Origin: a bacterium
GTDB lineage: Bacteria; Patescibacteriota; Minisyncoccia; Phycocordibacterales; UBA6899
NCBI GenBank assembly: GCA_043756865.1
Contig: JAYUQG010000024.1
Span: 91,259 to 155,258 of the forward strand
Direction: 5' to 3'
Length of the DNA stretch: 64,000 nucleotides
Part shown: piece after piece, positions 1,777 through 51,212 of the stretch
How positions within the stretch are numbered: position 1 is the stretch's first letter
How the letters are laid out: each line of letters starts with the position of its first letter
Notes under the pieces: generated by a model
Told to the model about the DNA's origin: nothing
Databases searched by the model: none
Seen by the model: the letters and a program-made list of their open reading frames with translations, nothing else
Position numbers and translations under genes: made by a program

Positions 1777-2628
1777 GTGAGATGGTATACTGTGTTCCAC
1801 ATGACGTTGTATATTGGAGTTATATACTTTCTTGCTTTTCTTCTCGGAGCTACTATCGGGAGCTTTCTCAATGTGGTTATTTATCGTATGGGAAGTGGAG
1901 TGGGGTTGGGGGGAAGGTCAAAGTGTCTTTCCTGCGGGCGCGCACTCACCGTGCGCATGCTCATTCCGTTATTCTCGTATTTCTTCCAGAAGGGAAAATG
2001 TGTATTTTGTCGCACAAAAATTGCAGTACAGTATCCCGCTGTTGAATTGGCACTCGCTTCACTTTTCGTTGCTGTTGTAGTGTTGCGTGGATTTGACCCC
2101 CTGCTCGCCACTTGGGTTGAGGTGTTACGAGTATTGCTTGAAATGACCGTGTGGTCGGTTTTACTTGGGGTACTCGTGTATGATCTCAAGCATAAGATTA
2201 TTCCTGACAGATTTTCTGTCATGTTTGCGGTTACTTCAGGAATATTGTTGTTTGTCACTACGCAATTGCAGACACCATCCGTGCAATATATTCCATTCCT
2301 CAATACTACGCCTGCGTGGATTGATTGGGCGGCTGCCCCCCTTATTGCAATTCCGTTTGCGTTACTGTGGCTTCTCTCGGGTGGTCGCGCGATGGGGTTG
2401 GGTGACGCGAAACTTGCTTGGGGGATAGGGTGGTTTCTCGGTTTTTCAGGTGGCGTAACGGCGGTCATTCTCAGTTTTTGGATTGCATTCATCCCAAGTA
2501 TAGTGCTGTTGTTTCTTCGTGCAAAACACTTTACAATGAAAAGTGAGATTCCATTTGCACCCTTTCTTGTGCTCGGCACACTTGTCACTTATTTGTTTGG
2601 GGTCGACATACTCGCATGGACATTTTAG
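1777..2628 (+). CDS. pilD: Prepilin peptidase (A24 family, PilD-like)
   Basis: N-terminal CxxC..CxxC tetracysteine motif (CLSCGRAL..CVFCRT), multiple TM segments, acidic catalytic-loop region. Located inside the pilus locus. The start codon is uncertain. Confidence 0.75.
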   Translation: MRWYTVFHMTLYIGVIYFLAFLLGATIGSFLNVVIYRMGSGVGLGGRSKCLSCGRALTVRMLIPLFSYFFQKGKCVFCRTKIAVQYPAVELALASLFVAVVVLRGFDPLLATWVEVLRVLLEMTVWSVLLGVLVYDLKHKIIPDRFSVMFAVTSGILLFVTTQLQTPSVQYIPFLNTTPAWIDWAAAPLIAIPFALLWLLSGGRAMGLGDAKLAWGIGWFLGFSGGVTAVILSFWIAFIPSIVLLFLRAKHFTMKSEIPFAPFLVLGTLVTYLFGVDILAWTF

Positions 2629-2647
2629 GCGATTCGGTATTTATAAT

Positions 2648-3292
2648 ATGTACAAGAAACAGCCATACACACAGTCCCAGTCATTGGAGAAAGGATTTTC
2701 CCTGCTCGAACTTATTGTTGCCATTTCCATTTTTATTGTCCTTTCGAGTGCTTTTTTGATTAACTATAATTCGTTTAATAAGCGTATCAGTATTGATACA
2801 TTGGCACATCAGATAGGCCAGTGGGTTCGCGATGCTCAAGTTTCTGCAATGAGCGTGAAGCGGACCAGTGTTTCATCGACCGTATTTCCCGGATATGGGT
2901 TGCATTTTTCGACATTAACTCCCAACAAGTTCATCTTTTTTGCAGATTCCCTGACCGCAAATAATCAATATGATGCAGGTGTGGGAATATGCGGCAGCGC
3001 AACCACTGAATGTGAGCGTGAGGTGCAACTCCTGCAGGGGAATGTGCTTGAGGCGCTCTGCGGCGATGCTCCGTCGGGTGCCGCCATTACGGCAAAATGC
3101 GGACTACTCGATACTTCAGAAACATTTGATATTGTGTTCACGCGACCCAATCCTGATGCGGTAATTACTGGCGACCTTGGCGGGGCATCATTCCCCACAG
3201 CGTATTCTCGGGCACAAATTCATTTGCTTTCCCCTGCAGGACACCGACGTGTGGTGGAGGTGTGGACAACTGGCCAGGTATCAATCAGATAA
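2648..3292 (+). CDS. Pilin-like / pseudopilin (minor pilin candidate)
   Basis: The ATG at 2648 gives MYKKQPYTQSQSLEKGFSLLELIVAISIF, a prepilin N-terminus. The longer ORF from 2543 would overlap pilD. Confidence 0.65.
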   Translation: MYKKQPYTQSQSLEKGFSLLELIVAISIFIVLSSAFLINYNSFNKRISIDTLAHQIGQWVRDAQVSAMSVKRTSVSSTVFPGYGLHFSTLTPNKFIFFADSLTANNQYDAGVGICGSATTECEREVQLLQGNVLEALCGDAPSGAAITAKCGLLDTSETFDIVFTRPNPDAVITGDLGGASFPTAYSRAQIHLLSPAGHRRVVEVWTTGQVSIR

Positions 3293-22938: not shown

Positions 22939-22976
22939 TATTTGGGCGCACTACTCGCCCTTCCTTTGGCAAATTT

Positions 22977-23036
22977 GGAGGACGTATCACTCATACGCCC
23001 TCGCAAATATTGCCGCAGTCCAGGACTTCGTACTGC
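22977..23036. repeat. 54-nt intergenic repeat, copy C
   Basis: ggaggacgtatcactcatacgccctcgcaaatattgccgcagtccaggacttcgtactgc matches copy B at 784-839. Confidence 0.6.
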
Positions 23037-35848: not shown

Positions 35849-35918
35849 GGGGGTAATACCTTGAAAAATAGACGCATTTGGCTATACTGCGTAGGTTAGT
35901 TGGATTGATATAACATAT

Positions 35919-35989
35919 TGCGGGTTCGTCTAATGGTAGGACGTTACCCTCTGGAGGTAAATATTGGGGTTCGAGTCCCTGACCCGCAG
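35919..35989 (+). tRNA. tRNA-Gln (anticodon CTG)
   Basis: TGCGGGTTCGTCTAATGGTAGGACGTTACCCTCTGGAGGTAAATATTGGGGTTCGAGTCCCTGACCCGCAG. U1-A72 pair and anticodon loop CTCTGGA. Confidence 0.85.
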
Positions 35990-36057
35990 TTACCACACAA
36001 AAACACTCTGCCAAGAGTGTTTTTGTTTTGTGGTAACTCGCGGGTCAGGGACTCGAA
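35971..36057. repeat. 87-nt palindrome: tRNA-Gln 3' end, a 20-bp hairpin, and an inverted copy of the tRNA 3' end
   Basis: tcgagtccctgacccgcag..ttaccacacaaaaacactctgccaagagtgtttttgttttgtggtaa..ctcgcgggtcagggactcgaa. Confidence 0.7.
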
Positions 36058-36152
36058 ATGCGTAAGGTGGTATACAAGACGAGCGAAGCGAGTGCTTGTC
36101 ACCGAGCCGGGGTCGAGAGCACTTTGTAGTTCGGTGGCCTTGCGCCGAAATA

Positions 36153-36186
36153 CTTAGTGACTCGTGACCGAGTCCCTGACCCGCAG
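36153..36186 (+). repeat. att-like direct repeat of the tRNA-Gln 3' end (18 of 19 nt identical)
   Basis: cttagtgactcgtgaccgagtccctgacccgcag, compared with the tRNA 3' end tcgagtccctgacccgcag. Confidence 0.6.
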
Positions 36187-36221
36187 CAATGTCGCAACGT
36201 CACCCTTTTTGGGTGATTTTG

Positions 36222-36391
36222 CTATGGGTGAAAATTGTTTGTGAGGGTGATGTTTTTCTCCCCCCGCTCAATTATGCCAATATATGTGCGGTGCACCTCG
36301 GCGCGCTCTGTGAGTTTTTCTTGGGAAAGCTCGCGTTTCAAGCGTTCCTCGCGGACTCGTTTGCCGAATTTGGTTAGCAACTGTTTATTCA
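36222..36391 (-). CDS. XRE-family (Cro/CI-type) HTH transcriptional regulator, 56 aa
   Basis: Below the 60-aa cutoff of the ORF track. The minus-strand translation reads MNKQLLTKFGKRVREERLKRELSQEKLTERAEVHRTYIGIIERGEKNITLTNNFHP, a canonical HTH_XRE. Divergent from the DUF2726 gene, with a palindrome gtaggaagttgcctac between them. Confidence 0.7.
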
Positions 36392-36452
36392 TATCTACAT
36401 GTACAGTGTAGGAAGTTGCCTACCATGGTTCTACATACTAAAGTTAGCAAAT

Positions 36453-37043
36453 ATGGACAATAATGCGGTGATATTTATACTAGTTGTTTTTGTTGTTTTT
36501 ATTGTGATGAAGATGTTTTTTCAAAAAAAGACACACACAAACACTCATTCAAAAAGCGGACTAATCCTTTCAATCATCTCGCTTTTGTTACCATTCGCGA
36601 AGGAGTTTTTAGAAAAGAGACAGGAGGAAAAGAAGTATATTACAGAAGACGCTCGATATAGTAAAAAACAATATTTCATGACGACCGCTGAGCATCATGT
36701 TTTCGACCAGTTGTTAAAAATAGCAGGGGAGAAATATCACGTCTTTCCGCAGGTGCACTACAGTAAAATTATGTACGCCGAGGGACAGCAGAATTTCCAT
36801 AATCCGTGGTTCAACAAGATAGACCGAAAGTCCGCAGACTTTGTACTTTTTGACAAGCACGACATTTCTCCTGTTTTGGTGATTGAGCATGACGATAAGA
36901 CTCATAATCGTAAAGACCGAATTGAAAGGGACGATTTTATTGACCACACACTTGAAAAAAGTGGAATTTCAATTGTGCATGTTCGACCATTCGCGACCGA
37001 AGAGGAACTGAAGAAACTACTCCAAGTAAAAATCAGTATATAA
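36453..37043 (+). CDS. DUF2726-like protein (PD-(D/E)xK nuclease-like fold) with an N-terminal TM segment
   Basis: Core FDQLLKIAGEKYHVFPQVHYSKIMY..ADFVLFDKHDISPVLVIEHDDKTHNRKDRIERDDFIDHTLEKSGISIVHV matches the DUF2726 pattern (..DF.. ..IELDD.SH....R..RD.F.D..L...GI.L.RI). Confidence 0.55.
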   Translation: MDNNAVIFILVVFVVFIVMKMFFQKKTHTNTHSKSGLILSIISLLLPFAKEFLEKRQEEKKYITEDARYSKKQYFMTTAEHHVFDQLLKIAGEKYHVFPQVHYSKIMYAEGQQNFHNPWFNKIDRKSADFVLFDKHDISPVLVIEHDDKTHNRKDRIERDDFIDHTLEKSGISIVHVRPFATEEELKKLLQVKISI

Positions 37044-37300
37044 GCTTGGATTGGCTTAAAATTGTTCCAACGTCGTCCCACACTCCCAGCAAATGGAAGC
37101 ACCCCTTGGGGGTGTTTTCATTTGCGGGAAAAAGTGCTCTGCAGCACTTTTGGCAGGGACTCGAAGCCGTTCTCCCCTATTTGTGAAGGATTCTTATCCT
37201 GAGTAAATGGAAAACGGGTACTGCCCCTGTAAGGGGAGAGTCTCTGACTCGGAAGACTGAGGCGAAACACTTGGCACATAAGCACTCCTGTGCGAATATG

Positions 37301-37331
37301 TTTAGTAACTAATGACCAGTCCCTGACCCGC
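37301..37331 (+). repeat. att-like partial repeat (agtccctgacccgc) with a flanking ttagtaact motif
   Basis: tttagtaactaatgaccagtccctgacccgc. 14 nt are identical to the tRNA-Gln 3' region. Confidence 0.5.
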
Positions 37332-37364
37332 TACTAAATTGAGTGAGGTTCGGTTCGCGAGAGT

Positions 37365-37790
37365 ATGATTATGACGCCAGAAAATTTAATAAACATAATA
37401 AGTATCGGAGGGGCACTACTAGGTGTTGTTGTTGGAGCACTCCTTAATCACTTTCTAGAAAAAGATAGAAATAAAGACTCTTTAATCTTAAATAAGAAAA
37501 TTGATATTTACTCCTCCCTGTTAGTTAAATTAAATACAGTATTTCAAGACAGTGAGAAAAATATTCTTAATGACCCACTCTTTGAAACAACAATCAGAAC
37601 AACCCTTGCACAATCATTGTCAGAAGCTCGCCTAATAGCTGATGCAAAATTAGAACAGAAACTCAGGGACTACTATGATGAAGCAGTGCTTTTTTGGGAG
37701 AATAAAAAGTACGACAACACCATGCCTAATTTAGTTATTGAGATTGAGCAGTTGATGCGAATTGAGCTAGGAAAAGAACGTCTGCATTAA
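37365..37790 (+). CDS. Hypothetical small membrane protein (one N-terminal TM plus helical region)
   Basis: 141 aa. A TM helix at 12-30 is followed by a charged helical segment. Confidence 0.45.
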   Translation: MIMTPENLINIISIGGALLGVVVGALLNHFLEKDRNKDSLILNKKIDIYSSLLVKLNTVFQDSEKNILNDPLFETTIRTTLAQSLSEARLIADAKLEQKLRDYYDEAVLFWENKKYDNTMPNLVIEIEQLMRIELGKERLH

Positions 37791-37915
37791 TCATTTTGCT
37801 GAGCGCCGAAATGACTTCTTTCAAATCGCCTTATATATCATTATTGGCTTAATGGGGGAAAGTAGGACGCAGGGGGCTGCGGTAAAACCACGAAGTGAAA
37901 AGAAGTATCGATCCA

Positions 37916-38614
37916 ATGAAAAACGAAAAAATTAACTCAAAAATCATCGCTCTGTGGAACAAGTATTTTCAGAATGACACTGAGGTGTACGCACCGATGT
38001 TCTACGATGACTTCAAGCGGGGCGGGTTATTGTTTGTCGGCATGAACCCGTCATTTAGCGAGCGAGGATTCAAGACGATCTTGAAAGGCACAAAGTATGA
38101 GAAGATTGACCCCACTTCGTTTTTCAGGTGGAGTAATATTTCCTCAAACCCTGATCTTATCAGCGACTGTATTGCGGTCGAGACCCATGCGTACGAGAAT
38201 TACAAACCCTTCTTTGCTCGTCCTGTTGCGATCGCAAAAGAAGTCGGGCTTGATTGGCAACACATTGATCTATTTCTTTATAAAGAAACATCGCAGGCAG
38301 ATTTCAAGAAACGCATTAAGGATGGTGACTTGCTGAATCAATTTGCACTCGAGCAAATCGCGCTCTTTGAGGAGGTGCTCCTTGCGATTGAGCCGAAGTG
38401 CATCATCGTTGCGAACGCATTCGGCTCCGAGCTTCTCCGTGAACACATCAAGAATGACCTCTTGTGGGATAAAGAGCGGGGATTTCACTGGTTCACCAAA
38501 GGAGGACGAAAGATTCCCATGCTCTTTTCCTCCATGCTTAGTGGGCAAAGAGCACTTGATCGGTGGTCGTATGAACGCTTGAAATGGCACGTTGGGCAGG
38601 CGGTAAAATCATGA
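37916..38614 (+). CDS. Hypothetical protein, possibly a divergent uracil-DNA glycosylase superfamily member
   Basis: LLFVGMNPSFSE resembles UDG motif A (GMNPG in SMUG, GINPG in MUG). C-terminal PMLFSSMLSGQRA resembles motif B (HPSP/MPSSSAR). By-eye similarity only. Confidence 0.3.
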   Translation: MKNEKINSKIIALWNKYFQNDTEVYAPMFYDDFKRGGLLFVGMNPSFSERGFKTILKGTKYEKIDPTSFFRWSNISSNPDLISDCIAVETHAYENYKPFFARPVAIAKEVGLDWQHIDLFLYKETSQADFKKRIKDGDLLNQFALEQIALFEEVLLAIEPKCIIVANAFGSELLREHIKNDLLWDKERGFHWFTKGGRKIPMLFSSMLSGQRALDRWSYERLKWHVGQAVKS

Positions 38615-39321
38615 AAATTATGACAGGAATATTTTTTTCACATCCACATACACTTTCAGATCAAGTAGGTAAAATCTTGGAAAGAGTTGGTCCTCAGAAA
38701 TTCTTTTCAAGTTCTGACAAAGAAGTGAAGAAAGCACAAGAAGGATTCGCGGCATATTTCTTCACTCTTACTTTAAAGAAATACACAGGAAGAGACTGGT
38801 GGTTAGCTCAATACGATCAAGCGGCTCGGTCTTATCCAGATTTTAATTTTATATCATTCGCCGAAAATCCTGGCGATATAAAGATGGAACCAGTAGAACT
38901 AACTGGTATTTATCCTCATTTCAAAACTTTTGATGAGGCCTTAAGAGTTGTTGAAAATAAAAAGAAGAAATATGGATCTGAGCCAGTGAATTTTAGTCTG
39001 CTGGTATTTGTTAATCACGAAAAAAGCGAAGAGTGGATTAATCTGCTAAGGGAGAAAGTGAGTAGCGAGCATCCATTCCTAAGTATTTGGACTATACACT
39101 TGAGATTCAAGAAGGGTGGAAAGGAAGTTGGTAAGTCGGTCGCCCAAAGCATACCCCCCTTGCCATGGCTGAGGATTGAAGCAGATACTGATGATTCAGA
39201 AGTGCACAAGCGCCAGCCGCTCCCATCCTATATGGAAGAGCATCATGAAGGAAGGAATACTTACGTCACATTCAAACCCGAGTTTCTTGATAAGATCAGG
39301 TCGTTGCAAAAAAGTGCCTAG
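38611..39321 (+). CDS. Hypothetical protein; its start overlaps the previous gene (ATGA)
   Basis: 236 aa with no motif recognised. 4-nt overlap with the upstream gene suggests an operon. Confidence 0.45.
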   Translation: MKIMTGIFFSHPHTLSDQVGKILERVGPQKFFSSSDKEVKKAQEGFAAYFFTLTLKKYTGRDWWLAQYDQAARSYPDFNFISFAENPGDIKMEPVELTGIYPHFKTFDEALRVVENKKKKYGSEPVNFSLLVFVNHEKSEEWINLLREKVSSEHPFLSIWTIHLRFKKGGKEVGKSVAQSIPPLPWLRIEADTDDSEVHKRQPLPSYMEEHHEGRNTYVTFKPEFLDKIRSLQKSA

Positions 39322-39628
39322 TTTGTTGGTGCTGTAAGAATATCCCCGAATGGCTTCACTGTACGGTATTTGTTGTAAATGAGGCAGAGACAGAGACGGG
39401 TGTTTTGTGTCTTATCTGTAGCATTCACAAAATGACCCCAGTGACCGAGACGCCTAGTTACAAGAGTAGAAGGGGTGGTAAGATATCCGTATAAGGTCTT
39501 GCCCTACATGTTTGAGACCGAGATAGTCAGCTATCAACAATAGGTTCGGCTGACCGAGTGCTATCAGAACTGGAAATTTAAAGATTCACTCAATTCCATC
39601 CCGACATACCGGCTGAGTGCCGTATCTA

Positions 39629-39667
39629 GAAACTCAAAGTCGCTCAATGGGCGACTTTGAGTTTGAG
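39629..39667 (+). other. Strong 13-bp hairpin in a 600-bp noncoding stretch
   Basis: aactcaaagtcgctcaatgggcgactttgagtt. Confidence 0.5.
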
Positions 39668-39806
39668 TTGTAGAATAGGTCTGTAATCTATAGGATATAC
39701 AAATGTCAGTCAAACTCATTCTGAAGAGATAGTCCGCTTCTTGAAAACCACAGAGCCGGAAGCCATTTGTATTAGGGGTGAATAGGGTGTCAGATTTGCA
39801 ACTTTC

Positions 39807-39821
39807 GGTTCGAATCCCTGA
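39807..39821 (+). repeat. tRNA T-arm-like fragment (ggttcgaatccctga); possible degenerate right att boundary
   Basis: 15 of 16 identity to the tRNA-Gln T-arm/acceptor junction ggttcgagtccctga. Confidence 0.4.
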
Positions 39822-39933
39822 AGCATTACCTCCACGGAATTGCACTGTACTTTCACCTTTTTTTATATTGCCTTGCGTTTTGTGCAGATATTGATAGTTT
39901 GAGCAGTATTATTTATCAACGCACGGCTTCTTT

Positions 39934-42681
39934 ATGCGTAAACTCGTCACCGTCTTATTCCTCGCCCTCACGCTTTTAGCTATCTCTCTGCCCACTGCGT
40001 TTGCAGCCTTCCCTGTTTTTCCTCCGACACTCAATAAAAGTCCCGACGCTGGGTATGCGGATGATTCAGTGAGCAGTGGAGTGGTGCCGAACATTGGTAC
40101 AACGAGTGCTACAGTCTTCACCTTTAAGGTGCTGTATGCACAGTCACAGAATCGTGAGCCATGGGACATTAATCTTGTTGTCACTGATGGAACAACCACT
40201 GCAATTCATGCGATGAATCATGATGTGGGTGCGAATGATCCAATATTACGCGATGGGAATTATGCGAATGGGGAACAGTACATCTTCGCTGCAACGCTCA
40301 CTCCAGGCATGTGGCAATACCACTTTGAAAGCGATTTCGGCGCACAACTTCCGGGAGCGGGGGAGTGGGATTTCACAGTGAGTGTCGATACGACTCCTTC
40401 GAAGTGTGGGGTGGATTGTTACTCAAATGTGCTTTTCCTGCCTGGACTTGAGGCGAGCAGATTATTTTGGACAGATCCAAATTGCATTTTCCTCAATTGC
40501 GAAAACCAACTATGGCTTGCCAATAGTGATACAGATGCAAAACAACTCTACCTTAATTCAAACGGCACAAGCATATTGAATGACATTTATACGAGTGTTG
40601 AACGAGGTGCGATCGACGAGGCGGCGATTCCTGTGGCGGGCACAAATATATATAAAACTTTTCTCAATAGTCTCAGTGAATGGAAGAATGAAGAGCATCT
40701 TATTGCCGACTACGCAGTAGCACCGTATGACTGGAGATTGTCAGTTGATGATGTGCTCACGAAGGGAATAAAAAACGGAGACAATATTTATTATGGTGGC
40801 GCGAGCGGGACATATATTCTTGATGAACTTTTACGCATGGCGTCCACGTCGAAAACGCAAAAAGTTACAATTGTTGCGCACTCAAATGGTGGATTAGTTG
40901 CAAAACAGTTAATGCTGAAGCTCCGCGAGCTAGGCAAGGAGGACTTGATTGACAGGCTCATTCTCGTCGCTGTTCCACAGGTTGGAACACCAAAGGCAGT
41001 CGGTGGACTACTTCACGGAACAGATCTTGGTCTCCCGTTCATTCTTGATGAGGAGCACGCTCGAACTCTTGGCGAGAATATGCCGAGTGCCTATGCATTG
41101 ATGCCATCTCAGAAATATTTCGAGACCATCAATCCGAATTCAATTACAAACAAACTCATTTCATTTACCGACTCACCGCTGTATGCGCCAGAGAGATCAC
41201 AGTACGGATTTTTGGTGAGCAACATGACGGAGCTTCGGGGCTATCTACTCGGCAGTGAAGGACGAACAGAGCCTGCCGATTCTGATCTCGATTCACCAAA
41301 TGTGCTGAAGTTCGAACTTCTCGATCAAGCATCATCAACCCATGCGCTACTCGATGAATGGCAACCTGCGAGTACGACCGAAGTGGTGCAAATTGGGGGA
41401 TGGGGAGAGAAAACCATATCCGGAGTCAGCTATTACACGGAACAACAACGTGATTGTGTGACTGTGCAGGGTCAGTTTGGCGCTAGTCACCAAGAGTGCG
41501 GTCCGTATTATGAGGTGAAAAAATACAAACCCAATTTTACGACAGAGGGCGATGGTACGGTGGTTGTTCCGAGTGCGCTTTGGATAGCGACAAGCACTTC
41601 GCAGGTTGAGAGGTATTGGGTGGATTTGAAAAAATACAATGATGAGAACATCGATAAAGACCACGCGAAAATACTGGAAGTGAGCACTCTCCTCGACTTC
41701 ATTAAGACCAAACTCACTAATGTGACGTCCTCACTCCCGAACTACATAGTAAACTCCGCATCGACGCTGAGCGACGCTCCAGACATAAAGTTTGTCTATA
41801 CACTCCACTCGCCGCTTTCGCTCAATCTCTACGACACTTTAGGAAATCATACGGGAATATCTACCACAACAGGTTACGTGGAGCAAAATATCTCAGGGTC
41901 TCGCTACGGCACATTCGGCGAAGTGAAGTATATTATTGCAAATGCCGATGTCGCTCAACATCTTGCGCTTCAGGGGTATGCGACAGGAACGTTCAGTTTG
42001 GATGTTGAAAAAGTACGTGGAGATATAATTCTCGCGAGCACCACCTTTGCTTCGGTGCCCGTATCTCCAAACACCATTGCGACATTCTCGCTTCCTGCAA
42101 ATGGTGACTTCTCATCTTCGACACCATTACGGGTTGACGTTGATGGAAATGGGGCAAATGATATCGTGCTCGTACCAGAGATTGGAGCAACTGTATATCC
42201 AGACTTCACTCCACCCGAAGCGATATTCTCATTTAATGCAATTACTAAAGATGTTGTGATTTTGGGGGAAGATAACGTTGGGACAACCTCAACACTAATC
42301 ACACCAACGTCGACCACCATCACTGACCAGTCGGGAAATACACTCAGCATCCCATTCATCAAGTTCAAAGAGAAGCCAACTAAATTAAAAATTGCATTCG
42401 ATACGTTAATTTATAACGGAGTAGCGACCGCAACACCATGGGTGACTATTGAGTATGAATGGGTGATTAAGAATAACGGCATGCTCCAGTCACTTTCACA
42501 GGATATTCGCATCAAGGGTGCGCGCCGTGTGACTGCAGACTATTCTTTGAGCAAGGGTGAAACCAAGATTATGGACAGAATCAGGGAGGATGGGGAAAAG
42601 AGTGTCACAAAAACTGTAAAAACGGGTGTAACCGTGCTTCCGCTGTCGACAAAAGCAGGAGCACTCGACGTGACGTATTGA
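39934..42681 (+). CDS. Large secreted alpha/beta-hydrolase (lipase/esterase GxSxG) protein with a long beta-rich C-terminal region
   Basis: Signal peptide MRKLVTVLFLALTLLAISLPTAFA. Nucleophile elbow VTIVAHSNGGLVAKQ. 915 aa. C-terminal about 400 aa rich in T/S/G/V repeats. Confidence 0.6.
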   Translation: MRKLVTVLFLALTLLAISLPTAFAAFPVFPPTLNKSPDAGYADDSVSSGVVPNIGTTSATVFTFKVLYAQSQNREPWDINLVVTDGTTTAIHAMNHDVGANDPILRDGNYANGEQYIFAATLTPGMWQYHFESDFGAQLPGAGEWDFTVSVDTTPSKCGVDCYSNVLFLPGLEASRLFWTDPNCIFLNCENQLWLANSDTDAKQLYLNSNGTSILNDIYTSVERGAIDEAAIPVAGTNIYKTFLNSLSEWKNEEHLIADYAVAPYDWRLSVDDVLTKGIKNGDNIYYGGASGTYILDELLRMASTSKTQKVTIVAHSNGGLVAKQLMLKLRELGKEDLIDRLILVAVPQVGTPKAVGGLLHGTDLGLPFILDEEHARTLGENMPSAYALMPSQKYFETINPNSITNKLISFTDSPLYAPERSQYGFLVSNMTELRGYLLGSEGRTEPADSDLDSPNVLKFELLDQASSTHALLDEWQPASTTEVVQIGGWGEKTISGVSYYTEQQRDCVTVQGQFGASHQECGPYYEVKKYKPNFTTEGDGTVVVPSALWIATSTSQVERYWVDLKKYNDENIDKDHAKILEVSTLLDFIKTKLTNVTSSLPNYIVNSASTLSDAPDIKFVYTLHSPLSLNLYDTLGNHTGISTTTGYVEQNISGSRYGTFGEVKYIIANADVAQHLALQGYATGTFSLDVEKVRGDIILASTTFASVPVSPNTIATFSLPANGDFSSSTPLRVDVDGNGANDIVLVPEIGATVYPDFTPPEAIFSFNAITKDVVILGEDNVGTTSTLITPTSTTITDQSGNTLSIPFIKFKEKPTKLKIAFDTLIYNGVATATPWVTIEYEWVIKNNGMLQSLSQDIRIKGARRVTADYSLSKGETKIMDRIREDGEKSVTKTVKTGVTVLPLSTKAGALDVTY

Positions 42682-48885: not shown

Positions 48886-49080
48886 ATGATCGAAGAAACA
48901 GAGAATGAAGTAAGCACAGAGGCTCCACAAGAAAACAGTCGAGAACTGGGTGATTCACTTGTACCCGACGCTGGTCCCAGTCCTGTTGGCGAAGATACAA
49001 AACTGGGCAGCGGCATCCTTGTCATGGCACTTGTTGGAGTTGCGGTAATTGTGTATGTCTTGTTAATTCAGTCCAATTAA
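48886..49080 (+). CDS. Small hypothetical protein with a C-terminal TM anchor
   Basis: 64 aa. Acidic N-terminus, then a C-terminal hydrophobic helix. Confidence 0.3.
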   Translation: MIEETENEVSTEAPQENSRELGDSLVPDAGPSPVGEDTKLGSGILVMALVGVAVIVYVLLIQSN

Positions 49081-49120
49081 TGCCATCCCCAACTAATCAT
49101 CTTATAAAAAACTCCTCACT

Positions 49121-49708
49121 ATGTTACATATATATCTCGTACGACACGGCGAGGACCAAGACAATATGCACGGGGTATTGAATGGCCGCAGGGATCAATC
49201 ACTGACGTTGCGCGGTGAAGCGCAGGCTATGAGCGCTGCAAAGCAACTACGCGCACTGGATATACCTTTTGCTGTTGTATACACATCACCACTTGTGCGT
49301 GCCGTCAAAACTGCGGAAATTATTACCAATGAGCTTCGCGCGAAAAGGGCGGAGATACTCTCGGACCTTATTGAGAGAGATTTTGGAGTGATGACTGGGG
49401 AATTGGTTACACGAATTCCCGAATTGTGTGGGCCGAACATTCTCGTGACAGAAAAGAATACATATTTTCTCTCTGCAAAAAAAGCAGAGGCATTTCCTCA
49501 GATGATGACACGGGCACGCCGATTGCTAAAACGCATTGCCTTACGTACGCCGAATGGAGCGGTTATTCTGGTTACTCATGGCGATATCGGGAAGATGATT
49601 TACGCGAGTTACTACGAGTTAGACTGGAAAGAAGTGCTCGAATCGTTACATTTCGACAATTGCGATGTTCTGCTCCTTTCGCCAGATGCAGACCTCGACG
49701 AACCTTAG
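49121..49708 (+). CDS. Histidine phosphatase family protein (phosphoglycerate mutase-like)
   Basis: N-terminal LVRHGEDQDN catalytic RHG motif, and C-terminal VTHGD. Confidence 0.8.
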   Translation: MLHIYLVRHGEDQDNMHGVLNGRRDQSLTLRGEAQAMSAAKQLRALDIPFAVVYTSPLVRAVKTAEIITNELRAKRAEILSDLIERDFGVMTGELVTRIPELCGPNILVTEKNTYFLSAKKAEAFPQMMTRARRLLKRIALRTPNGAVILVTHGDIGKMIYASYYELDWKEVLESLHFDNCDVLLLSPDADLDEP

Positions 49709-49867
49709 AGCCTATCCCAGCAGGAACTTTCCTGCTGCAACACGCGATCTTCAATAAAAACACGCAAAACCTTTGTCGTCTTGTCTCGACAAGCCTTCGC
49801 AGGTTTTGCATGTTTTTATAATAAAGCTCTCGCGTTTCGCTACGGAGGTCCTACTGGGATAGGCTCT
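49707..49867. mobile_element. MITE-like 161-bp element with about 19-bp terminal inverted repeats and internal hairpins
   Basis: The left end agagcctatcccagcagga and the right end tcctactgggataggctct are a perfect 14-bp TIR that extends to about 19 bp. Internal hairpins include cagcaggaactttcctgctg and gcaaaacct..aggttttgc. No ORF. Confidence 0.45.
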
Positions 49868-49950
49868 TATGTGTTCATGCAGGAAGACCGCAATAACTAG
49901 TCCGCACATCCCGTTTCTGCTAATTGCTAAAGTGCGTATAATAGCCACAT

Positions 49951-50502
49951 ATGCAAAAAGTCACACTCAGCGCACTTGTATTCTTACTCGTGCTTTTCCC
50001 GTACTCCGCAAGCGCACACGGAGCAGGGGAGAGTATCCAAGTTGAGCACAACGGATACACGCTTTCGCTCGGTTCTGCTGCGGAATTTGTCACCGCTGCC
50101 GCCGCTGAGCGACTAAATTTGGAAATTGAGACAGTGGGCGATGAGGATTTTCAGGGATATACCGGCGTGTGGGTGCGCATCGTCGACCCAAGCGGTGAGT
50201 TTCTTTTTGCAGGAACAATCGACAAGGCACCTACGGGGCTGTTGACCGGTATGACTTTTTTCTTTCCTGTATCTGGAACATACGATATGACACTGCGATT
50301 TATGGACGATGAAAAAGTCATTGCAGAGGGACAATTCCCGCTTCCAGTCCGCGACAGCAAAGTCTCAGCTGGGGGCACAAAAGAGAATGGGGAAAGTGGT
50401 AAGATGCTGCCGTTGTATTTTTTTGTTTCTGGTTTGGGGGGTCTCATCATCGGACTACTGTTTGCCGTGCGGTTACGCAAGTCAGCACTTACACAAAAGT
50501 AA
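49951..50502 (+). CDS. Secreted membrane-anchored hypothetical protein (N-terminal His straight after the predicted signal cleavage site)
   Basis: Signal peptide ..FPYSASA followed by HGAGES. C-terminal TM anchor. Adjacent to the DUF411 gene. Confidence 0.45.
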   Translation: MQKVTLSALVFLLVLFPYSASAHGAGESIQVEHNGYTLSLGSAAEFVTAAAAERLNLEIETVGDEDFQGYTGVWVRIVDPSGEFLFAGTIDKAPTGLLTGMTFFFPVSGTYDMTLRFMDDEKVIAEGQFPLPVRDSKVSAGGTKENGESGKMLPLYFFVSGLGGLIIGLLFAVRLRKSALTQK

Positions 50503-50510
50503 TTTCTATC

Positions 50511-51212
50511 ATGATTATTCAACGATACTTTTTCGCCCTCATGAGTGTGGTTTGTGTCAGCGTCCCGAGCGCCGTGTTTGCGCACGGTGGCGAGCATCCC
50601 ATGATGATGACTGAGCCACGGTACGCAGCCTACCTCTTGCCGGCGAGCGCCATCTTTGCGGGGTGCATTATTGGCGGGCTTTTGTTTGCGAAAACTCGTT
50701 CAAAAAAAGATGCCGGTATGCTCGGCCTTATCTCCGCACTTGTTGTGTTGATAGTCAGTCCGATGGTGTTCCCGCAATTGGGTAGTACGCCACATGACAT
50801 GAGCACTATGGCACCGATCGGAATGACTCCTGTGGGACAAATACTGTTGGGGTCTACTGCGACCGTGTATCGTTCACCTGGATGCGGTTGCTGTGGAGGA
50901 TATATAGAGGAGCTTAAGGCTGCGGGGGCTGCCGTCACCGAGACACAAGTGACGGATGCGGAGCTGGCTCTATTAAAACAGAAGCATAACGTTCCAAATG
51001 AGTTATATAGTTGCCACACAAGCATCATTGACGGATACGTCGTTGAGGGTCATGTGCCTTTTGAGGCAGTCGCCAAACTCTTGAAAGAGAAACCTACTAT
51101 ATCAGGAATCGCACTCCCGGGGATGCCGATTGGAACACCCGGGATGCCGGGCACGAAGACGAAACCCTTTGAAATTAAAACACTTTCAGGGGAAGAGTTC
51201 ATGAATCTTTAA
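50511..51212 (+). CDS. DUF411 (copper-resistance-associated metal-binding) domain protein with an N-terminal Met-rich segment
   Basis: The C-terminus YRSPGCGCCGGYIEELKAAG..SCHTSIIDGYVVEGHVP..ALPGMPIGTPGM matches the DUF411 pattern. N-terminus reads AHGGEHPMMM. Confidence 0.6.
   Translation: MIIQRYFFALMSVVCVSVPSAVFAHGGEHPMMMTEPRYAAYLLPASAIFAGCIIGGLLFAKTRSKKDAGMLGLISALVVLIVSPMVFPQLGSTPHDMSTMAPIGMTPVGQILLGSTATVYRSPGCGCCGGYIEELKAAGAAVTETQVTDAELALLKQKHNVPNELYSCHTSIIDGYVVEGHVPFEAVAKLLKEKPTISGIALPGMPIGTPGMPGTKTKPFEIKTLSGEEFMNL

Follow-up and report, generated by a model that had tools for sequence, protein, structure and literature searches.

Bacterial MITEs (miniature inverted-repeat transposable elements) derived from IS5-family insertion sequences (IS) are small and non-coding, carry terminal repeats identical to the ends of an autonomous IS, are flanked by a short duplication, and have copies at unrelated sites, mostly intergenic or at gene ends, with presence/absence polymorphism. 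All these properties are shared by the 159-bp element described here, which was found in a 64-kb stretch of Patescibacteria DNA (hereafter the window, meaning the whole stretch that was analysed). The element is very probably a MITE, namely a non-coding, non-autonomous derivative of an IS5-family insertion sequence, and as such belongs to a commonplace class of mobile DNA, of which it is a clear case. In contrast to generic IS5-derived MITEs, however, it has an interior unrelated to any autonomous element found, a near-complete covarying foldback, a trait that is weak or missing in most other miniatures sharing its ends, and no autonomous partner seen in the host lineage.

A further parallel is offered by the Correia elements of Neisseria, which are palindromic miniatures of ~100–155 bp that end in terminal repeats and are bordered by a short TA-containing duplication. 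They resemble the window element in adjoining genes and in forming long hairpins in transcripts. Effects through promoters, IHF sites, and RNase III are documented for Correia elements; their repeat sequence and lineage, however, are unrelated to those of the window element.

As for individual insertion sequences, the nearest named ones are ISAzo38 (Aromatoleum aromaticum plasmid) and ISPrst3 (Proteus/Enterobacterales plasmids), both assigned to the IS5 family by RefSeq annotation. These are autonomous elements of 0.87–0.89 kb with TAA duplications, and their ends (GAACCTATCCC…) show the same motif with G3 changed to A, the repeat differing from that of the window element at 3 of 18 positions. 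Unnamed elements of 911 and 912 bp match the left end of the window element at 21 of 22 nt and have the same 3-bp duplication (TAA/TTA). They encode a transposase (OrfA/OrfB) and reside in Pseudomonadota, whereas the window element belongs to Patescibacteria, has no transposase, and shares with them only about 18–22 terminal nt. A literature search on MITEs in Patescibacteria (CPR) returned nothing relevant, and a search for the repeat sequence found no paper.

The features of the locus are as follows.

49121–49708, forward strand: histidine phosphatase gene (PF00300), truncated to 195 aa
49705–49707, no strand: left copy of the target-site duplication, TTA
49708–49866, no strand: the very probable MITE proper, 159 bp, non-coding, with a foldback over its whole length
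49708–49725, forward strand: left terminal inverted repeat GAGCCTATCCCAGCAGGA, its first 13 nt equal to the ends of the 911-bp IS5-family elements
49718–49737, no strand: local hairpin with a perfect 9-bp stem (49718–49726/49729–49737), overlapping the inner part of the left repeat
49754–49819, no strand: central hairpin with 32-nt arms (49754–49785/49788–49819), 81% complementary, the apex of the foldback
49849–49866, reverse strand: right terminal inverted repeat TCCTACTGGGATAGGCTC (reverse complement GAGCCTATCCCAGTAGGA)
49867–49869, no strand: right copy of the target-site duplication, TTA
49868–49900, forward strand: orphaned 3′ end of the phosphatase gene, 10 intact codons (YVFMQEDRNN) and the original stop TAG at 49898–49900
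49951–50502, forward strand: downstream gene of 183 aa with no Pfam hit, 84 bp beyond the element

The original prediction placed a MITE-like element of 161 bp at 49707–49867. Its location is correct, but its size has to be reduced to 159 bp (49708–49866), because the outer A and T belong to the TTA/TTA duplication. Near-perfect terminal inverted repeats of ~19 bp had been noticed at 49707 and 49849, and they are indeed present: AGAGCCTATCCCAGCAGGA (49707–49725) and TCCTACTGGGATAGGCTCT (49849–49867) are complementary at 18 of 19 positions. The 18-nt repeats of the element itself, which read GAGCCTATCCCAG(C/T)AGGA, are perfectly complementary over the first 13 nt and at 17 of 18 positions overall. 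According to an inverted-repeat search, the arms extend to 27 nt at 85% (49702–49728/49846–49872), and this pair, spanning 49702–49872, is the top-ranked inverted repeat of the 64-kb window. As for other copies of the 14-nt repeat core, the window holds the core at two places, both of them element ends (0.24 expected with at most 2 mismatches), and homologous copies of the element occur in other genomes and metagenomes. Thus, within the 64-kb window the copy number is 1 according to both the family nhmmer profile and the repeat-core search.

The insertion has the layout CC-TTA-[GAGCC…GGCTC]-TTA-TGTG. The flanking duplications that were to be looked for are therefore TTA/TTA, which agrees with the target rule of the family, and so do the adjacent bases (C|TTA|T). 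A 2-bp TA duplication would be an alternative to the 3-bp one; however, the 3-bp TWA reading gives symmetric repeats and suits 30 of 35 elements with this repeat. The lack of an ORF stated in the original prediction also holds, with none lying wholly inside the 159-bp element and all frames across it being too short for a transposase. In addition, the element shows no tblastn similarity to IS5-family transposase, and a protein-database search with its concatenated six-frame peptides gave no match at E up to 10.

The effect of the insertion on the upstream gene provides the most direct view of the event. The element had been described as starting at the stop codon of the histidine phosphatase gene. 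It does overlap this codon, but the stop is not the native one: the present TAG (49706–49708) was made by the insertion and consists of the TA of the duplication and the first G of the element. Almost all homologues, which are Patescibacteria proteins according to their database names, are 205 aa long, 205 being the commonest length. Right after the element, the frame continuing from 49705 reads YVFMQEDRNN and then TAG, and in-silico deletion of 49706–49867 (162 nt) yields a 205-aa protein ending in …DEPYVFMQEDRNN*, with the reconstructed pre-insertion sequence being …GAA CCT TAT GTG…. The restored C-terminus, …LLLSPDADLDEPYVFMQEDRNN as aligned (short form …EPYVFMQEDRNN), aligns residue for residue with the homologue ends …LLLSKDSPAEEPHVFKQNQHNH and …EEAYVFKMDQVNL; homologue C-termini read …EEPHVFKQNQHNH, and the relic codons match the conserved [H/Y]-V-F and the penultimate N. 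Scored with an HMM built from 107 homologues, the protein gains 7.8 bits over its truncated form when the restored frame is added, as compared with 0.6 and 2.3 bits for the other two frames. Since excision restores a 205-aa ORF that matches the homologues, the element was inserted ten codons before the original stop. Neither the relic codons nor the old stop has been damaged, which suggests that the insertion is fairly recent, and the phosphatase would now be made without its last ten residues. The junction expected in an empty allele of this locus is …GAACCTTATGTGTTC….

To locate the source of the ends, one genome per species was scanned with the query AGAGCCTATCCCAGYAGGA, which returned 45 loci, with approximately nine random matches expected under uniform base composition. 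None of these loci corresponds to the window itself, which places its genome outside the collection covered by the scan. The 13-nt core GAGCCTATCCCAG bounds 911-bp elements in Methylocaldum sp. GT1BB (11 copies in the fetched loci, namely L014 1117–2027 and 10 more) and one 912-bp element in a Burkholderiaceae genome (L005). The 911-bp element contains two overlapping ORFs with an A7 run (slippery site) in the overlap. OrfA corresponds to DUF4096 (PF13340, 87.7 bits) and OrfB to DDE_Tnp_1 (PF01609, 60 bits), and both match the NCBIfam model NF033580 “IS5 family transposase” above its cut-off (113.8 and 153.8 bits, respectively). Similar transposase sequence adjoins the repeat in a Methylomicrobium genome and also in a Phycisphaerae genome, where it is cut by the contig end. 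The transposases of ISAzo38 and ISPrst3, which may be of the IS427 or IS1031 type, are 53–72% identical to the Methylocaldum transposase. The IS427 group of the IS5 family is typified by two overlapping ORFs that contain a frameshift motif and by a length of ~0.85 kb (PMC3281130), and IS1031-group elements of similar size exist (PMC3196728). The ends of the window element are identical to the autonomous ones over 13 nt and match them at 18 of 19 positions when the flanking base is included; the 3-bp TWA duplication and ends of the form GAGCC… or GAACC… agree with the IS5 family as well, whose TA-containing duplications measure 2–4 bp and whose ends begin with GAG or GAA. Judging from these sequence comparisons, the source of the ends is the IS5 family, probably its two-ORF IS427/IS1031 type, in which a DDE transposase is predicted to be produced from two frames.

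The same core also bounds non-coding miniature elements of 42–336 bp in at least five phyla, with hosts including Noviherbaspirillum, a Myxococcales genome, Photorhabdus, Edwardsiella, Planctomycetales, Candidatus Schekmanbacteria, and an alphaproteobacterium, among others. Identical 3-bp flanks surround 30 of the 35 elements with this repeat (15 TAA and 15 TTA), and the duplication is usually preceded by C and often followed by G, which gives a CTWAG-like target. Outside the terminal 18–25 nt or so, the interior of the window element is unlike those of the elements from other phyla.

Several of these miniatures are lineage-specific, having the same end and unrelated interiors, such as those of 262–263 bp in Noviherbaspirillum and 143–163 bp in Photorhabdus/Edwardsiella. 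The Myxococcales genome has, spread over five contigs, three full-length copies of a 158–159-bp miniature, one 42-bp element, and a solo end, and an alphaproteobacterial contig (L036) carries three 88–89-bp copies within 1.6 kb. In Methylocaldum (L027 2232–3214), a 69-bp miniature (2232–2300) and a 911-bp IS (2304–3214) are separated by a single TAA, so that one of the two appears to have used the duplication of its neighbour as an insertion site.

Copies with a homologous interior occupy five distinct insertion sites: the one in the window and four unrelated loci elsewhere, namely L038, the 3′ end of a NusB-NUDIX gene, a site upstream of a glycosyltransferase gene, and L065 2781–2938. The copy in L038 and copies in metagenome contigs are 80–87% identical to the window copy, and their flanks are unrelated. 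L038, which belongs to Candidatus Lloydbacteria, is the only Patescibacteria locus among the 45 with the exact 19-mer; its copy runs off the end of the fetched stretch, and the 75 nt that could be compared, which extend into the interior, are 87% identical; the left flank is a different one. Three contigs were retrieved from metagenomes with a 22-mer specific to the family, and a look-up of neighbouring proteins added longer ones. The full-length 161-bp metagenome copies are ~80% identical to the window copy, and the architecture of the family spans 158–161 bp. Assembly ERZ28563625 contains two 161-bp copies that are 100% identical and lie at unrelated loci, one 5 nt after the stop of the NusB-NUDIX gene (scaffold_4082) and the other upstream of the glycosyltransferase gene (scaffold_9794). 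The third, diverged copy (scaffold_9794, L065 2781–2938; nhmmer score of 89.7 bits) has TAA/TAA flanks, and its insertion point coincides with the stop codon of a convergent gene, the stop being preserved. One family copy has TTA/TTG flanks, which is not a perfect duplication.

An empty site is represented by the orthologous glycosyltransferase locus L062, the flanks of which are colinear (77%) after excising the element and one TTA. A second candidate, L059 as the empty NusB-NUDIX site, was rejected, with only 21 nt available after the stop and flanks that are too diverged. Contigs of several other assemblies stop inside the element, because multi-copy repeats break assemblies. Five sites, presence/absence variation, and identical copies thus identify a mobile family. 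The MITE-like nature proposed in the original prediction is supported by the TTA/TTA duplication, the copies at four unrelated loci, the IS5-family ends, and the excision that restores the gene.

Two observations concern the surroundings of these copies. In L038 (6448–7999), the copy lies ~100 bp upstream of a 460-aa gene resembling a large serine recombinase, and this neighbourhood may be the edge of another mobile element. Near the locus bearing the L065 copy, colinear metagenome contigs (L065 12643–14809 and L066 3010–5021) differ between the GH57 and PGI genes, one of them having a 657-aa GH15 gene and the other two small unannotated reverse-strand ORFs, i.e., a gene-content polymorphism.

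Regarding the mechanism, an IS5-family transposase supplied in trans would bind both repeats, cut the element out or copy it, and, by a cut staggered by 3 nt, insert it at a TWA target, frequently CTWAG. The element would thereby be selfish and non-autonomous, and any transcript through it would carry a very stable 3′ hairpin. No matching transposase is present in the 64-kb window or in any family-carrying contig searched, and the metagenome scan with the family-specific subterminal sequence matched miniature copies only and no IS. An autonomous partner was likewise not found in the same genome or lineage, of which the coverage is partial, with L038 carrying the miniature only. A mobilising enzyme is nevertheless presumed to have acted in the Patescibacteria lineage. 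Viral contigs scanned with both the general and the family-specific repeat gave 0 matches.

The internal structure of the element deserves separate consideration. Two hairpins had been predicted in the interior, and both are there, at 49718–49737 and 49754–49819. The former is conserved in all family copies, and the core of the latter (GACAAG...CTTGTC) is invariant in the family; the arm pair 49737–49747/49830–49840 links them into one long imperfect foldback. Folding the whole element, as had been proposed, accordingly gave one long hairpin far beyond shuffled controls, with predicted energies of −77 kcal/mol for RNA of the + strand, −93.5 kcal/mol for RNA of the − strand, and −44.5 for DNA (z of −8.9, −11, and −9.5, respectively), and no shuffle was as good in any of the three cases. 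Over 49695–49880, RNA of the window copy gains 16 kcal/mol in folding on the − strand relative to the + strand, since positions that are mismatched on one strand can form G-U pairs on the other. A metagenome copy is free of this asymmetry (−90.9 vs −93.4 kcal/mol), and that of the window copy is attributed to a few transitions after insertion. An antisense RNA, considered on account of the better − strand fold, was rejected since the metagenome copy folds equally well both ways.

Beyond the repeats, the two arms are 69% alike in both full-length variants, as compared with 36–63% in other miniature elements with the same ends and ~47% for shuffled arms. Corresponding arms of different copies are 74–76% alike, which exceeds the similarity of the two arms within one copy, while a cross comparison of the left arm of one copy with the right arm of another gives 56–60%. 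It follows that the family inherited the palindrome from its ancestor and that the two arms have co-evolved. Among the three distinct full-length copies, 14 of 66 pairs have changed on both sides and still pair, and 91.9% of cells are paired; none of 500 shuffles reaches the observed values, and slid partner columns give 0–5 pairs. Several of the compensatory changes of the diverged copy fall within its terminal repeats. As the comparison comprises only three sequences, which also supplied the structure, the maintenance of the foldback by compensatory changes is suggestive rather than rigorous. The interior appears to be a lineage-specific foldback, which could reflect either a structural requirement or homogenisation between the arms.

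The original prediction took covariation in relatives to indicate a structured RNA rather than a mobile element. This turned out to be a false dichotomy: the family both covaries and is mobile, and covariation is thus no argument against mobility here. Interior covariation does, however, exceed what a transposase-binding requirement alone predicts, which is a point against an account based on a MITE only. A further reading is that the whole-length foldback is functionally required and no by-product, whether by forming a hairpin or cruciform on which transposition acts or by providing an RNA 3′-end module, and that the element persists in a lineage lacking its own transposase, being moved occasionally by an incoming IS5-family transposase. 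This extension of the MITE reading is considered improbable. Should the foldback function as an RNA 3′-end module, the small genomes of Patescibacteria could tolerate or even exploit such modules.

A more radical proposal is that the element is primarily a functional structured RNA (3′-UTR stabiliser, terminator-like barrier, or riboregulator) between the phosphatase and the downstream gene, its transposon ends being incidental or the element being a domesticated MITE. Such an RNA would fit the very stable predicted hairpin on both strands, the covariation that backs the foldback in three diverged copies, and the better fold of the − strand in the window (−93.5 vs −77 kcal/mol), although the latter asymmetry is absent in the metagenome copy. 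It would also fit the positions of the copies, since, of the 5 sites where the upstream flank can be read, 4 are located at a gene's 3′ end or immediately behind it, the fifth (L038) being upstream of the recombinase gene. Gene-end sites are, however, expected anyway, because purifying selection acts against insertions elsewhere and the TWA target resembles stop codons. In addition, the copies stand beside unrelated genes with no fixed context, one of them upstream of a recombinase gene, and a conserved protein is shortened by the insertion here, which has the look of damage, not of design.

Signature searches do not favour a structured RNA either. No Rfam match was obtained in the window at the gathering score, and at E up to 10 the region 49500–50100 gave two weak matches, both to the upstream phosphatase coding sequence, with one touching the first base of the element; the element itself thus has no Rfam match even at this relaxed threshold. 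A terminator and promoter scan of 49000–50600 detected no intrinsic terminator (stem plus T run) in or at the element and no sigma-70-type promoter in it. With no Rfam match, terminator signature, or fixed context, the alternative named in the original prediction, a structured RNA such as a terminator with a riboregulatory element, is not supported as an identification of the element, and a primarily functional RNA is regarded as quite improbable. A regulatory role of the element is possible but unsupported, since neither an Rfam match nor a predicted terminator or promoter was found.

Even less credit is given to the suggestion that a full-length IS was inserted at this site and lost its interior in situ, never having been mobilised as a miniature. 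While the ends are those of IS5-family elements and the window has no other copy, the same 158–161-bp architecture with a homologous interior is found at four other unrelated loci, identical copies included, and therefore the miniature form itself has moved. Moreover, nothing in the interior resembles the subterminal regions of the autonomous elements. Finally, a chance palindrome or an assembly artefact, for which the sole point is that metagenome assemblies can create foldback chimeras, is given hardly any weight, as no shuffle folds as well, family members occur in several independent data sets, and an independent assembly (Logan SRR23617209, L001) is 100% identical over 311 nt, so that the element is no product of assembly.

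Other repeats were noticed in the window. One of ~95 nt, unrelated to the probable MITE and with the core TTTGGGCGCACTACT…GTATCACTCATACGCCC…ATCGCCGCAGTCCAGGACTTCGCA, occurs twice in the window (22942–23036 and about 748–838) and once in L038 (4838–4930). One of the window copies directly follows the stop of an ftsE-like gene, and the L038 copy directly follows the lepA stop. Its copies agree at a mean column identity of 74%, 3 pairs are compensatory in the consensus fold of two sequences, and it has no Rfam match; it could be a small mobile repeat or a small RNA/terminator module. Within 35918–36186, the last 18 nt of tRNA-Gln(CTG) (35970–35987) recur in inverted orientation at 36040–36057 and in direct orientation at 36169–36186. 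Beyond this tRNA gene, G+C falls to 0.42–0.43 over 4 kb (36000–40000). The tRNA-Gln repeats resemble remains of attachment sites, left by an element that integrated at this tRNA gene.

Overall, the element is mildly notable for its host lineage, the reuse of its ends across phyla, and its covarying foldback, and it would hold no surprise for a specialist in mobile DNA. For annotation, it corrects a gene model, as a 205-aa phosphatase has been cut to 195 aa and the apparently “intergenic” DNA next to it comprises the orphaned last ten codons. It also illustrates how such elements break metagenome assemblies in practice, and it adds a caution for RNA-discovery screens, in which covariation in a palindromic repeat alone does not amount to a structured RNA gene. 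As for the IS5 family, miniature elements unrelated to one another share one 13–18-nt end of this type across at least five phyla, and with the window element, which is very probably one of them, a MITE family is documented in Patescibacteria (CPR), a lineage with small genomes.
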